This document shows, piece after piece, positions 45,556-50,230 of a stretch of DNA of 64,000 bases. The stretch lies in assembly GCF_003334385.1 (NCBI RefSeq), contig NZ_QOWN01000001.1. One strand, written 5' to 3'. The notes beneath the pieces were generated by a model. That model was not told the origin of the DNA. It worked only from the letters and a program-made list of their open reading frames with translations, and ran no database searches. The stretch is from Escherichia coli (GTDB lineage Bacteria; Pseudomonadota; Gammaproteobacteria; Enterobacterales; Enterobacteriaceae). Every line of letters starts with the position of its first letter. The first letter of the stretch is position 1. A program made the position numbers and the translations under genes.

Positions 45556-46221
45556 CTATGCCGTAATATCCCAACCACGCGCTTTCCACAGTTCAGGTAA
45601 CTGCGAAAGATGGGTAAAGGTGGTGACTTTCGGGTGAACGATCGGCTTATTGTGCGGGTCGGCGCAGAAGTAGAACACTTCCATACCTGCGTCGATACCA
45701 GATTGTGCACCGGCAACTGAGTCATCAACCAGAATGCAGTTTTCTACATTTACATTCATCGCTTTTGCCGCATGGAACATTAACGCCGGGTCTGGCTTCC
45801 AGCGCTGAATATCGTAGCCGCTGAACAGTTTATCCGGGAAGTAGTGCAACATATTCAGCTTGCCCATAGAATGCTGCATTTTGTTATTTGGGCCGTTAGA
45901 TACCACACACATTGGCGCAGTGATCGCTGACAGGAGCGCTCCAGCCCCTTCGATGGCTTCCAGTTCTGAATCGAACAGCCGAGCGACTTCTGCACGGTAA
46001 ACGTGTTCAGCTTCTGTTTTCGCTAACGTAACACCATGTTCAAGGGAAACAATATCGATAATTTCGTACAGTTTTACACCTTTGAAACGTTTGAATACCT
46101 CTTCAGGATCGAGCGTAATACCAAATTCCTGAAACATCGTTACATATGCGCGAGAGCAAATGACTTCACTGTCGACCAGCGTACCGTCGCAGTCGAAAAA
46201 TACCGCTTCTATCCGGGACAT
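45556..46221 (-). CDS. yieH: HAD-superfamily sugar-phosphatase
   Basis: 221 aa; HAD motif I FFDCDGTLVDSE. Confidence 0.9.
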   Translation of the reverse strand: MSRIEAVFFDCDGTLVDSEVICSRAYVTMFQEFGITLDPEEVFKRFKGVKLYEIIDIVSLEHGVTLAKTEAEHVYRAEVARLFDSELEAIEGAGALLSAITAPMCVVSNGPNNKMQHSMGKLNMLHYFPDKLFSGYDIQRWKPDPALMFHAAKAMNVNVENCILVDDSVAGAQSGIDAGMEVFYFCADPHNKPIVHPKVTTFTHLSQLPELWKARGWDITA

Positions 46222-46385: not shown

Positions 46386-47723
46386 ATGAGTCATCAACAT
46401 ACCACCCAGACTTCTGGTCAGGGGATGCTGGAACGCGTGTTTAAACTGCGCGAACATGGCACGACGGCACGGACCGAAGTGATCGCCGGTTTTACCACCT
46501 TCCTGACGATGGTTTACATCGTTTTTGTTAACCCGCAAATTCTTGGCGTTGCTGGCATGGATACCAGCGCCGTCTTCGTCACTACCTGTCTGATCGCTGC
46601 ATTCGGCAGTATTATGATGGGACTGTTTGCTAACCTGCCAGTTGCACTGGCACCCGCTATGGGCCTGAATGCGTTCTTCGCTTTTGTCGTTGTACAGGCG
46701 ATGGGCTTGCCGTGGCAGGTCGGGATGGGCGCAATCTTCTGGGGCGCGATAGGTCTGCTGTTACTGACGATTTTCCGCGTTCGCTACTGGATGATAGCCA
46801 ACATTCCGGTGAGTCTGCGTGTGGGTATTACCAGCGGTATCGGTCTGTTCATTGGCATGATGGGGCTGAAAAACGCAGGTGTGATTGTCGCTAACCCGGA
46901 AACGCTGGTGAGCATCGGTAATCTGACTTCTCACAGCGTACTTCTGGGTATCCTCGGCTTCTTCATCATTGCTATTCTGGCCTCGCGCAACATTCACGCA
47001 GCGGTGCTGGTTTCTATCGTGGTGACGACGCTGCTGGGCTGGATGCTGGGTGATGTGCACTACAATGGCATCGTTTCTGCGCCGCCGAGCGTAATGACAG
47101 TTGTGGGTCATGTAGATTTAGCCGGGTCGTTTAACCTCGGGCTGGCAGGGGTGATTTTCTCTTTCATGTTGGTCAACTTGTTTGACTCCTCCGGTACGCT
47201 GATTGGCGTGACCGATAAAGCAGGTCTGGCGGATGAGAAGGGGAAATTCCCGCGCATGAAGCAGGCGCTGTATGTCGACAGTATCTCTTCCGTGACCGGT
47301 TCGTTTATCGGTACTTCTTCCGTTACGGCTTATATTGAGTCCTCTTCCGGCGTATCGGTTGGCGGTCGTACCGGTCTGACGGCAGTGGTTGTTGGTCTGC
47401 TGTTCCTGCTGGTTATCTTTCTGTCGCCGCTGGCGGGGATGGTGCCAGGCTACGCTGCAGCTGGTGCGCTGATTTACGTTGGCGTGCTGATGACTTCCAG
47501 TCTGGCACGCGTGAACTGGCAGGATCTTACTGAATCTGTTCCGGCGTTTATTACCGCCGTGATGATGCCGTTCAGCTTCTCGATTACCGAAGGTATCGCG
47601 CTGGGCTTTATCTCCTACTGCGTGATGAAAATCGGTACCGGACGTCTGCGTGATCTAAGCCCGTGCGTAATCATCGTTGCGCTGCTGTTTATCCTGAAGA
47701 TTGTCTTTATCGACGCTCACTAA
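46386..47723 (+). CDS. adeP: adenine permease (NCS2/AzgA family)
   Basis: 445 aa polytopic transporter. Confidence 0.92.
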   Translation: MSHQHTTQTSGQGMLERVFKLREHGTTARTEVIAGFTTFLTMVYIVFVNPQILGVAGMDTSAVFVTTCLIAAFGSIMMGLFANLPVALAPAMGLNAFFAFVVVQAMGLPWQVGMGAIFWGAIGLLLLTIFRVRYWMIANIPVSLRVGITSGIGLFIGMMGLKNAGVIVANPETLVSIGNLTSHSVLLGILGFFIIAILASRNIHAAVLVSIVVTTLLGWMLGDVHYNGIVSAPPSVMTVVGHVDLAGSFNLGLAGVIFSFMLVNLFDSSGTLIGVTDKAGLADEKGKFPRMKQALYVDSISSVTGSFIGTSSVTAYIESSSGVSVGGRTGLTAVVVGLLFLLVIFLSPLAGMVPGYAAAGALIYVGVLMTSSLARVNWQDLTESVPAFITAVMMPFSFSITEGIALGFISYCVMKIGTGRLRDLSPCVIIVALLFILKIVFIDAH

Positions 47724-47739
47724 AATCGATAGCGCGTTA

Positions 47740-47774
47740 AAAACCCGCCATGCATGATTGCTGGCGGGTTTTTT
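47740..47774. terminator. bidirectional rho-independent terminator between convergent adeP and chrR
   Basis: AAAAACCCGCCA-(loop)-TGGCGGGTTTTTT: a GC stem flanked by an A-run on one side and a T-run on the other. Confidence 0.8.
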
Positions 47775-47776
47775 AT

Positions 47777-48343
47777 TTAGATCTTAACTCGCTGAATAAA
47801 CTCACCAAATGCGGTCAATTGCCCGGTCAGGTGGTCCAGCGTACCCTGATCAATCACTTCTCCGGTTTGCGGATCAACTTTGTTCTGAATCACGCCGCCC
47901 ATAAATTCCGGCTTGTTCATCACCATTGCATCGAGGAAAACCAGAATCTGGCGCAGGTGATACTGACAGCGCGCGCCGCCAATCACGCCCATTGAGCTGG
48001 TCTGAATCAATACCGGTTTACCGGCCAGCGGTTGATCCGGCAGGCGGGAAAGCCAGTCGATGGCATTTTTCAGCCCACCCGGTACCGAGTAGTTATATTC
48101 CGGCGTGACGATCACCACACCGTCAGCCTGACGGATCTGTTCCGCCAGAGCTTCAACCGTTGCTGGAAAACCTTCTTCCTGCTGTACGTCAGCGTCATAC
48201 AAGGGAATGTCGGCAATGGATGGTAACGCATTGACTTCCATGCTCGCCGGAGCAATTTTCGGCAGGGTACGTGCAACCATGCCATTAAATGAGCCTTTGC
48301 GCAGGCTCCCCAGTAACGTAACCACCTGCAATTTTTCAGACAT
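47777..48343 (-). CDS. chrR: NAD(P)H-dependent FMN reductase / chromate-quinone reductase
   Basis: 188 aa; flavodoxin-like motif LLGSLRKGSFN. Confidence 0.92.
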   Translation of the reverse strand: MSEKLQVVTLLGSLRKGSFNGMVARTLPKIAPASMEVNALPSIADIPLYDADVQQEEGFPATVEALAEQIRQADGVVIVTPEYNYSVPGGLKNAIDWLSRLPDQPLAGKPVLIQTSSMGVIGGARCQYHLRQILVFLDAMVMNKPEFMGGVIQNKVDPQTGEVIDQGTLDHLTGQLTAFGEFIQRVKI

Positions 48344-48364
48344 GATGACTCCTGTGGTTGTCTA

Positions 48365-49126
48365 TCAATTTGGCGAAAAAGCCTTCACGGTAGAGAGTTG
48401 GGCAAAACGCATCATCCGGCTGGTAGGATTGTTGGCGCGGCTGTGAATATCCGGCAGGCTTTTCCAGCCGTGTTTGCCATCTAACTCCCAGACACTGAGC
48501 TTTTCAATCGTGGGCGTGACCGCCACGGACCACACCAGCACGTCTTCCGCGTCGCATAACGCTTCTACATGATTTACATGAGCACATTTCAGGCGTCCGG
48601 CAATGGGCAGCAGCTGCAGATCGCGCGGATCGTCATTCAAAACATCACCGGTTAGTTTTAGCACGCTTCGGCGCAGCGTGATGAGCTGCGCCCGCGCTTC
48701 GTTAGGATCGTTTTGTTTACTGATCCATAGCGATTCATTGCTGGAAAAGGTGTGGTTATCGGGCGCGTGTGGGCTATGAAACCCGCGCGTCGCACGCTGT
48801 AGTTCCATATCGAGGCCACATTCACCTTCGGTTGTTAACGCCACGCCAACCATATTCCCGGCATAGGAAATGGAAAACGAAGGCAAATTTTTATCACTGA
48901 AAACCGGTTTACCTTTCGGCAGGGTGACGATTTCCGGCAATTCGCCAATGCCATACAGCATGAACATCAGTTCTGCGAGTAAACCTCTGGACGCCAGAAA
49001 ACGGCTTTGACGATGAGGGGGAATGTTTCGGGCTTCTTGATGACACTGGGAGGGGAGACGAACAGAAATCAGATGTCCTTCCGTTAAAATCCCTCGGGCA
49101 AAGTGAGTCGCCATTTTTCGCTCCAT
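48365..49126 (-). CDS. yieE: phosphopantetheinyl-transferase-like protein
   Basis: ORF of 253 aa (the true start may be the internal MATHFARG, 249 aa); 4 bp... 21 bp downstream of chrR's start region on the same strand, suggesting co-transcription. Confidence 0.8.
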   Translation of the reverse strand: MERKMATHFARGILTEGHLISVRLPSQCHQEARNIPPHRQSRFLASRGLLAELMFMLYGIGELPEIVTLPKGKPVFSDKNLPSFSISYAGNMVGVALTTEGECGLDMELQRATRGFHSPHAPDNHTFSSNESLWISKQNDPNEARAQLITLRRSVLKLTGDVLNDDPRDLQLLPIAGRLKCAHVNHVEALCDAEDVLVWSVAVTPTIEKLSVWELDGKHGWKSLPDIHSRANNPTSRMMRFAQLSTVKAFSPN

Positions 49127-49270
49127 GCTTAATGGTCCATTATGAATACAAGAGTAATCATTTACTGGAATGATGGACAGACTAAAGCGGCTAAAAGTTC
49201 GATTCAGACAAGCTTATTACAACTTTTTTACATTTTATTGTGAAATTGGGTCGCGTTTCATACGATTCGG

Positions 49271-50230
49271 TTATGCCATCGACGCGTAAAGGTTTTTAAT
49301 GGTTTCCCGTAACCAGACGATCTTCGGATTATGGCTGTTCCGTTTATGCCACAGCAGGGTAAAAGGAACTTCCAGCTTTTTTTGCTGGCTTTCGTCAAAC
49401 GGGAGAGGAAGAGCAACCAACGGCAGTTGATGGAGTTGATTGTAGTACTGACAGTAGCGCGGCGCGGTCGCCAGTAGCAGATTGTCGGGTTGCGCTGCCA
49501 TAAACAGTGACTGCTCGAATTCCGGCAGGCTCATAGCAATCGTGCGTTCGCGTCCCAGCTCCTGTAACACATTGTCCAGCGCCCAGGTATCGCTCTGTTC
49601 CCAGCAAATGCTGATATGCGGATAACGTAAGAAGGTGTCCAGATTCCACGTTTGATGCAGTGCCGGATGATCTTTGCGTAACCAGACGCAGGGCACATCA
49701 CTAAACAGCACTTCATAATCAATGGCTAACGGTAGCGAGCTTAACAGCTCCCGCGAGCGAGGATGGCTTTCGCGACCGGAAAAACCGATATCCACTTCAC
49801 CACGAGTAATGGCATCTAAGGAATCGTAATCCCAGTTACGTAATTTGATGGTCGCCTGCGGGTAACGTTGGTAGATCTGTTTCGACAGCGCATTAAGCAT
49901 GATCATCATCAGCGGTGATTCCGCCGCCAGCTCAAACTTCAGGCCGCGCGGTGTCTGGTGGTGCGGTTTATCCAGCAGCAGGTTGCTCATTTGCATCCAC
50001 TCCGCCAGATTTTGCTCCATGCTGACCATCAGCGGTGTGGGCGACAGACCCAGCGGTGAGTTCACAAAGAGCGGGTCGTCAAACCACGCTCTTAACTTTG
50101 CCAGCGACTTACTCACCGCCGAAGGTGTCACGTTTATCCGCTTCGCCGCTTTGGTTACGCTGCGCTCCTGCATCAGCAGTTGCAGACAAAGCAGCAGATT
50201 GAGATCAAGCGTGGTGATGGATTTCTTCAT
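49271..50230 (-). CDS. yidZ: LysR-family transcriptional regulator
   Basis: N-terminal LysR HTH ([30 protein letters not shown]); start chosen at MKKSITT (319 aa). The 5' end overlaps the mdtL 3' end. Confidence 0.88.

Follow-up and report, generated by a model that had tools for sequence, protein, structure and literature searches.

In the Bacillus subtilis 4′-phosphopantetheinyl transferase (PPTase) Sfp, the Mg2+ ion is held by three acidic residues, D107, E109, and E151, and mutations of the first or third of these ligands abolish the activity or lower it more than 20-fold in Sfp, Lys5, AASDHPPT, SchPPT, and Hppt (PMC4103896). The same source lists only two group II PPTase genes in Escherichia coli K-12, entD and acpT. 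In E. coli O157:H7, AcpT is the enzyme that activates ApeE/F, the carrier proteins of the aryl-polyene system (PMC8253772). Another E. coli gene, yieE, is named in RefSeq as encoding a “4′-phosphopantetheinyl transferase family protein” of 249 amino acids (aa). It is located next to chrR (also known as yieF) in a 64,000-nucleotide (nt) stretch of contig NZ_QOWN01000001.1 (assembly GCF_003334385.1), referred to here as the window. A preliminary description of the window implicitly treated YieE as a PPTase in search of a substrate, a premise that its residues render doubtful. The explanation that we favor, with moderate confidence, is that YieE would be a conserved noncatalytic protein with a PPTase fold, co-transcribed with chrR.

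The relationship of YieE to known PPTases is a distant one. Pfam searches with the E. coli protein returned no match even at E values of up to 10, the ACPS domain (PF01648) included; this domain matches 4 of the 19 members of the YieE clade, the most basal ones. A sequence search of PDB gave a chance match only (E = 0.78), and the PADLOC defense models gave no match. The sole NCBIfam match was to the AcpT equivalog model NF007676 (E = 7e-11; 42 bits, below the cutoff of 174). It spans residues 36 to 141 of a 253-aa open reading frame (ORF), or residues 32 to 137 in the 249-aa numbering used throughout this text. In BLASTP, YieE and K-12 AcpT share 34% identity over 88 aa (E = 2e-12). A HMMER search of 1.84 billion cluster representatives detected just 296 proteins at E values of 1e-3 or lower, so the YieE family is small. 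The AlphaFold2 model of YieE, built from a 91-sequence alignment, had a mean predicted local distance difference test score (pLDDT) of 87.7 and a predicted template-modeling score (pTM) of 0.86. Its top 34 Foldseek matches in PDB were all Sfp-type PPTases (Sfp, AASDHPPT, PptT, PcpS, and PptAb), the best one being Sfp (PDB 4MRT; E = 1.6e-10, template-modeling [TM] scores of 0.62/0.67); human AASDHPPT (PDB 2C43) had a TM score of 0.64. Judging from the alignments and the predicted structure, YieE is a true but very divergent relative of the Sfp/AcpT-type PPTases with a two-lobed alpha/beta fold. The AcpT-model match and the predicted Sfp-type fold thus bear out its earlier designation as PPTase-like. 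The search for the PPTase domain proper gave a mixed picture, with no match in Pfam but with two of the three Mg2+-binding acidic residues, D102 and E104, in place.

The active-site residues of YieE were assigned from two independent MAFFT alignments, which agreed with each other; the Sfp reference sequence was checked against PDB 1QR0. YieE residues G68-K69-P70, Y84, D102 (part of the GLDME motif in E. coli), E104, I145, R148, R149, S150, and K153 correspond, respectively, to Sfp residues G74-K75-P76, H90, D107, E109, W147, K150, E151, S152, and K155. In the Sfp-coenzyme A (CoA) structure, residue H90 is the CoA-contacting His of the (F/S)-x-(I/L)-S-H-S motif. The third Mg2+ ligand lies in the W-(S/T)-x-(K/R)-E motif (E151 in Sfp and E181 in AASDHPPT), where the E. 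coli YieE carries Arg149. Among 72 species-representative genomes, position 149 is occupied by Gln (62 species), Arg (9 species), or Lys (a single species) and never by Glu. Position 84 is Tyr in all 72 species, and position 145 is Ile, Val, Leu, or some other residue but never Trp. Neither Glu149 nor His84 was found in any of the 187 unique YieE orthologs with at least 55% identity. The remaining two Mg2+ ligands, D102 and E104, are kept in 68 of the 72 species and lost in four (which have GLNMA, GLNMT, GL--A, and GLALA, respectively). G68 and P70 are invariant in the 187 close orthologs, with either Lys or Arg at position 69, and R148, S150, and K153 are invariant in close orthologs as well. 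The Asp and both Glu residues are always present in the canonical relatives included in the alignment, as well as in AcpT, EntD, and Sfp, and just two of the aligned canonical relatives lack the CoA-contacting His.

More distant members of the YieE clade suggest the order in which these residues would have been lost. P0150 (31% identical to the E. coli protein) has Tyr84 but retains the WTVRES sequence with its Glu; Serratia YieE (39% identical) has Tyr84 and Gln149 and keeps the Trp; and in the YieE proteins of Enterobacteriaceae, the Trp is lost too. In other distant members of the clade, position 149 is occupied by Lys, His, or Ala, and the GxDxE motif is replaced by GLSMS or GFSMT. Scores against the family model drop in step with this decay of the active site: the AcpT model gives 113 to 120 bits for the PPTases of aryl-polyene clusters, 68 bits for Serratia YieE, 54 bits for P0150, and 42 bits for E. 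coli YieE. In a neighbor-joining tree calculated without the diagnostic active-site columns, the YieE clade was monophyletic (37 of 40 bootstrap replicates) and nested among canonical AcpT-like PPTases. Two of these canonical relatives, P0172 and P0274 (the latter from Rahnella), were checked for genomic context, and each proved to be encoded by the last gene of an aryl-polyene-type cluster. The genes in these clusters code for LolA-like, MMPL, DUF3261, ketosynthase, ApeP-like, ketoreductase, and ketosynthase proteins, which is the composition of the 3′ end of an aryl-polyene cluster. Taken with the role of AcpT described above, the position in the tree and the cluster context mark YieE as an apparent offshoot of the aryl-polyene/AcpT lineage of PPTases, whose nearest canonical relatives are PPTases encoded at the ends of aryl-polyene clusters.

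The gene itself is under purifying selection. Ratios of nonsynonymous to synonymous substitution rates (dN/dS), calculated by the Nei-Gojobori method in comparisons with Escherichia, Salmonella, Citrobacter, Enterobacter, Kluyvera, Klebsiella, and Raoultella, were 0.05 to 0.16 for yieE, 0.02 to 0.06 for chrR, and 0.015 to 0.05 for the adjacent gene adeP. YieE is the fastest-evolving protein of the neighborhood: at the distance of Klebsiella and Raoultella, it is only 61 to 62% identical, compared to 86% for ChrR, 96% for AdeP, 80% for YieH, and 75% for YidZ. The yieE ORF is intact and full length in the 72 species representatives, and 16 residues of its product (M1, H4, R19, P70, P78, F80, N87, G100, E127, W130, A140, Q143, S150, P170, G173, and W195) are invariant down to 30% identity; yieE is not a pseudogene. 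The low dN/dS values and the invariant residues suggest that YieE has kept its fold and some of the surface that once bound the nucleotide but not the transfer chemistry.

The favored explanation joins the homology, predicted fold, residue states, selection, synteny, and operon anatomy described in this work into the following scenario. YieE would descend from the AcpT-type branch of Sfp-type PPTases that activate aryl-polyene carrier proteins. In an ancestor of Enterobacterales, it would have become a stand-alone gene at its present locus, losing the residues of phosphopantetheinyl transfer: the CoA-contacting His would have been replaced by Tyr, the third Mg2+ ligand by Gln, Arg, or Lys, and the Trp by Ile, Val, or Leu, with the DxE acids additionally lost in a few species. 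The protein would have retained its fold, its G-K-P motif, and R148 and K153, the basic residues of the catalytic helix. Together with chrR, yieE would form a minus-strand two-gene unit, transcribed from a sigma-70 promoter in front of yieE as far as a hairpin shared with adeP. Its product would no longer modify carrier proteins and would instead be a conserved noncatalytic protein, possibly still binding CoA or a nucleotide. Any alternative role of YieE is speculative; because the G-K-P loop has been retained along with the basic residues of the helix, CoA or nucleotide binding or a regulatory function would be our best guess.

The principal competing view, implied by the RefSeq name and by the preliminary description, holds YieE to be an active PPTase, with a carrier-protein substrate that is encoded elsewhere in the genome or has escaped recognition. 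This appears unlikely. The predicted Sfp-type fold, the purifying selection, and the conservation of D102, E104, R148, S150, and K153 would all be expected of an enzyme, and K-12 AcpT provides a precedent of a PPTase that is active despite being separated from its substrates (PMC8253772). However, the third Mg2+ ligand is missing from all of the 72 species and 187 orthologs, and mutations of the Sfp E151 type have abolished or greatly reduced the activity of every PPTase tested (PMC4103896). Furthermore, position 149 varies between Gln, Arg, Lys, and Asn, with His or Ala in distant members, in a manner unlike that of a catalytic site; the CoA-contacting His is Tyr throughout; and the four species devoid of the DxE acids still have an intact yieE. 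In K-12, acpS is essential and entD mutants do not make enterobactin, so YieE replaces neither of these enzymes at native expression levels. As the preliminary description had noted, there is no carrier-protein, nonribosomal peptide synthetase (NRPS), or polyketide synthase (PKS) gene next to yieE. Sfp-type PPTase genes usually have such neighbors, although these are not obligatory. A tblastn search with AcpP found no carrier-protein match in the window or in 80 orthologous loci, and no PKS, NRPS, or carrier-protein-like ORFs were seen at the yieE loci, as judged by that search and by the Pfam labels returned. This lack of an accompanying carrier protein is best explained by the loss of the transferase chemistry of YieE, rather than by an undiscovered substrate.

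Several observations weigh against the view of YieE as a noncatalytic protein. The loss of activity is deduced from the residue states of YieE and the mutagenesis of other PPTases, and the way in which Y84 and R149 are placed with respect to D102 and E104 comes from sequence alignments. The strong conservation of D102, E104, R148, S150, K153, and the G68-K69-P70 motif means that selection still acts on what used to be the active-site region, which could carry out some chemistry or bind a ligand. A metal can still be coordinated by Gln, the most common residue at position 149, and P0150, a basal member of the clade, keeps Glu at the equivalent position. The AcpP search gave nothing significant even in the fragments of aryl-polyene clusters, so it is sensitive only to close relatives of AcpP. 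Finally, synteny that is conserved within a single bacterial order may reflect simple inheritance and not functional coupling. A bolder and rather unlikely possibility is that the PPTase fold has been repurposed in Enterobacterales: YieE, kept beside ChrR for a very long time, may serve as a sensor or binder of CoA, adenosine 3′,5′-diphosphate, or another nucleotide, or may catalyze a different chemistry, perhaps in the same stress-response pathway as ChrR.

Co-transcription of yieE and chrR had been proposed in the preliminary description, and the anatomy of the locus (Table 1) agrees with it. As described, the two minus-strand genes have exactly 21 nt between them. Their orientation makes yieE the upstream, promoter-proximal gene; the reported order, with chrR coming first, holds only when the plus strand is read. 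On the coding strand, the spacer sequence is TAGACAACCACAGGAGTCATC, followed by the ATG codon of chrR. It includes the chrR Shine-Dalgarno sequence AGGAG (positions 48353 to 48349), located 5 nt before that ATG, and no terminator-like site was detected in it (positions 48344 to 48364) either by reading the sequence or by a terminator scan. The spacer is 10 to 41 nt long in nearly all of the 80 species-representative genomes. In the intergenic region upstream of yieE, the consensus scan produced one sigma-70-like match (−35 element ATGAAA and −10 element TAAAAT, 18 nt apart; positions 49261 to 49232), which is no better than expected by chance. Both in vivo and in vitro, yieE has been documented to have a sigma-70 promoter, with a promoter-proximal pause that depends on sigma-70 and is relieved by GreA/GreB (PMC7876045). 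A second −10-like sequence, TGTAAT/TAATAA, is found within ~15 nt downstream of TAAAAT (window positions 49215 to 49240, minus strand) and would fit the “−10-like repeat” to which that study ties the pause at yieE.

At the other end of the unit, a hairpin comes immediately after the stop codons of the convergent genes adeP and chrR. The simple terminator scan missed this hairpin, which was detected by RNA folding; the predicted energies are −22.6 kcal/mol (z-score of −5.6) for the minus strand and −23.0 kcal/mol (z-score of −5.7) for the plus strand, and none of the 200 shuffled sequences was as stable. This hairpin is probably a bidirectional intrinsic terminator that is common to adeP and closes the yieE-chrR unit. 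Expression data are available for both genes: yieE and yieF are induced by rapid acid treatment (PMC2270276), and yieE is up 2.3-fold in a sigma-E data set (PMC2731931). Given the short terminator-free gap, the terminal hairpin, the known yieE promoter, the joint acid induction, and the conserved spacing, a probable two-gene operon is the best reading of the locus.

Table 1. Features of the yieE-chrR locus, in window coordinates
Feature	Coordinates	Strand	Basis
chrR (yieF) coding sequence, 188 aa	47777..48343	minus	ORF list, sequence, RefSeq, Pfam FMN_red, PDB 3SVL
yieE coding sequence, 249 aa	48365..49114	minus	ORF, RefSeq, AcpT model match, AlphaFold2/Foldseek, motif states
yieE-chrR spacer, 21 nt	48344..48364	minus	Direct sequence reading
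Extra in-frame ATG (49126-49124) plus three codons, not the true start	49115..49126	minus	Direct reading; found in 16/79 loci
yidZ-yieE intergenic region, holds the yieE promoter	49127..49270	minus	Consensus scan and PMC7876045
GC-rich hairpin with A-run/T-run flanks, probable bidirectional intrinsic terminator	47741..47774	both	RNA folding

The association of the two genes extends well beyond E. coli. The yieE-chrR order was found in 76 of the 80 Enterobacteriaceae loci, and the genes around yieE across the 80 species are mdtL, yidZ, chrR, adeP, and yieH. Serratia has the same order, as do three metagenomic contigs with a YieE identity of 31 to 40% and a ChrR identity of 71 to 81%. In six lineages (L037, L044, L046, L077, L086, and L095, including the contigs that carry P0128 and P0131), an intact yieE is directly followed by adeP, with no adjoining chrR. 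In Serratia and one metagenomic contig, chrR and adeP are separated by an ORF of 350 to 360 aa, on the same strand as chrR, that has no Pfam match and is not present in E. coli (positions 7532 to 8584 in L089 and 3122 to 4204 in L091).

Such a conserved arrangement raises the possibility that YieE is a dedicated partner of ChrR, i.e., its regulator, chaperone, or complex subunit, and that its position before chrR reflects a physical or functional coupling. Same-strand adjacency with short gaps, seen even in contigs with highly diverged YieE, and the increased expression of both genes after rapid acid treatment are consistent with this idea, yet it seems quite improbable. The six lineages just mentioned have yieE without an adjoining chrR, the YieF protein was crystallized alone (PDB 3SVL), and the dN of YieE is ~3 to 5 times that of ChrR, which would be unusual for an obligate partner. 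AlphaFold2 modeling of YieE joined to ChrR by a (GGGGS)6 linker, based on a genome-paired alignment from 20 genomes, produced two separately folded domains (pTM of 0.49, pLDDT of 72) and hence no confident docking, although with a shallow alignment, ChrR modeled as a monomer, and no predicted aligned error, this was a weak test. A complex of the two proteins was accordingly set aside as unsupported by the modeling, and a ChrR-linked role of YieE is possible but unsupported. Least probable of all is that YieE is a functionless relic decaying into a pseudogene: its rapid evolution, its missing catalytic residues, and the occasional single-genome deletion or read-through fusions (P0011, P0012, and P0094) could be cited in favor of such a fate, but this idea was rejected on the basis of dN/dS values far under 1 and the integrity of the ORF, and is further at odds with the 16 invariant residues, the presence of the gene in 5,422 of 5,426 E. 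coli genomes, the conserved Shine-Dalgarno sequence, and the active promoter (PMC7876045).

The fusions themselves are one-off events that carry no functional information. P0094, a 397-aa YieE-ChrR read-through protein, results from a lost stop codon in one genome of Salmonella enterica subsp. salamae. It was considered as a Rosetta-stone type of evidence and rejected, being a single lost-stop read-through with an N-terminally truncated YieE in one genome. In P0011 and P0012, from two E. coli genomes, deletions have joined MdtL or YidZ to the part of YieE that begins at approximately residue 50, with the junctions at short LM/ML microhomologies.

The positions of the chrR and yieE ORFs are as originally described, with yieE running either from 48365 to 49126 (253 aa) or to the start codon listed in Table 1 (249 aa). 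Its start codon had been regarded as ambiguous, and there are indeed two in-frame ATG codons four codons apart (ATG GAG CGA AAA ATG GCG ACT on the coding strand). The ambiguity can be settled in favor of the shorter form. The Shine-Dalgarno sequence GGAG (positions 49124 to 49121) is located 6 nt before the ATG at 49114, overlapping the segment that holds the upstream ATG, and all orthologous loci listed have GGAG and an A-rich spacer before the yieE ATG. Of 79 orthologous loci, just 16 have the upstream ATG; the other 63 have ACG, AGG, or AAG in its place. YieE orthologs from Enterobacteriaceae start with MATHFAR or a near variant of it. The conserved spacing of GGAG, the rarity of the upstream ATG, and the N termini of the orthologs show that the 249-aa start, which is also that of RefSeq, is correct.

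The DNA of this locus is common to nearly all E. coli. The segment from 47700 to 49300 is 100% identical to the one in E. coli K-12 MG1655 and was found in all but four of the complete genomes counted above, with coverage of at least 80% in 5,416 of them. RefSeq labels the genes on the minus strand of the window mdtL, yidZ, yieE, and yieF, followed by the convergent adeP, and describes the yieF product as a class I chromate reductase. ChrR matches the Pfam FMN_red domain (E = 1.7e-43) and, over residues 1 to 188, the PDB entry 3SVL, “protein yieF” (E = 6e-122). It is a known NAD(P)H-dependent flavin mononucleotide reductase, alias quinone/chromate reductase, with a solved structure, and nothing about it is new. 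The gene identities at the yieE-chrR locus are thus ordinary: both genes have already been annotated, and there is no new system.

Some further features of the window were recorded along the way. The mdtL and yidZ genes overlap by 26 nt on the minus strand (positions 50205 to 50230), and the mechanically called ORF of yidZ has a TTG start codon that precedes the annotated one (319 aa) by three codons. The yieH gene (45556 to 46221, minus strand) shows a dS of ~1.06 to 1.4 against K-12 among close Escherichia lineages, compared to 0.3 to 0.5 for adeP, chrR, and yieE. At the protein level, YieH is 84 to 87% identical among these lineages, and AdeP and ChrR are 98 to 99% identical. The yieH allele may thus have been replaced by recombination, either in K-12 or in the other lineages. 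Elsewhere in the window, matches above the Rfam gathering threshold, all on the minus strand, were to a 16S rRNA cut by the window edge (1 to 1188), the small RNA STnc410 (27554 to 27711), and AsdA, the antisense RNA of dnaA mRNA (59776 to 59856).

What the analysis adds to the known gene identities is a probable answer to the puzzle of the missing carrier protein. YieE is an uncharacterized core gene product of the best-studied bacterium, and its “PPTase family” name invites hunts for a carrier protein; if its fold has indeed been repurposed, the core genome of E. coli K-12 encodes, under a misleading name, a conserved member of the PPTase superfamily that is not a transferase. With the loss of the catalytic Glu, the question shifts from what YieE modifies to what a dead PPTase fold does, and caution is advisable in transferring the PPTase annotation to YieE. 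The open-access literature contained no assay or discussion of YieE as a PPTase, only transcriptome tables and the promoter-pausing study. No published statement on the loss of its active site was found in the searchable literature, which excluded the curated EcoCyc text, and the novelty of this claim is provisional.

The downstream gene product is the same protein as the class I chromate reductase ChrR/YieF, with no difference. EntD belongs to the same superfamily and the same organism as YieE, and both have the DxE motif; however, EntD retains the equivalent of H90 and has E152, and it adjoins its substrate genes in the ent/fep cluster, neither of which is the case for YieE. Sfp and human AASDHPPT are the best structural matches to YieE, yet they share only 14 to 17% sequence identity with it. 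Relative to Sfp, YieE has the equivalents of D107, E109, K150 (as Arg), S152, K155, and G74-K75-P76 but has Tyr in place of H90, Ile in place of W147, and Arg in place of E151. AcpT (YhhU) is the closest family by sequence, and K-12 AcpT, similarly to YieE, is encoded apart from carrier-protein genes. The two share the Sfp-type fold (predicted in the case of YieE), the RxxR..R, GKP, and GxDxE motifs, and the R/K-x-S/A-x-x-K helix. They differ in that YieE scores far below the AcpT equivalog cutoff (42 versus 174 bits), is ~55 aa longer, and has chrR as its neighboring gene instead of closing a polyketide-like cluster, and in that AcpT residues H73, W133, and E137 are replaced in YieE by Tyr84, Ile145, and Arg149.

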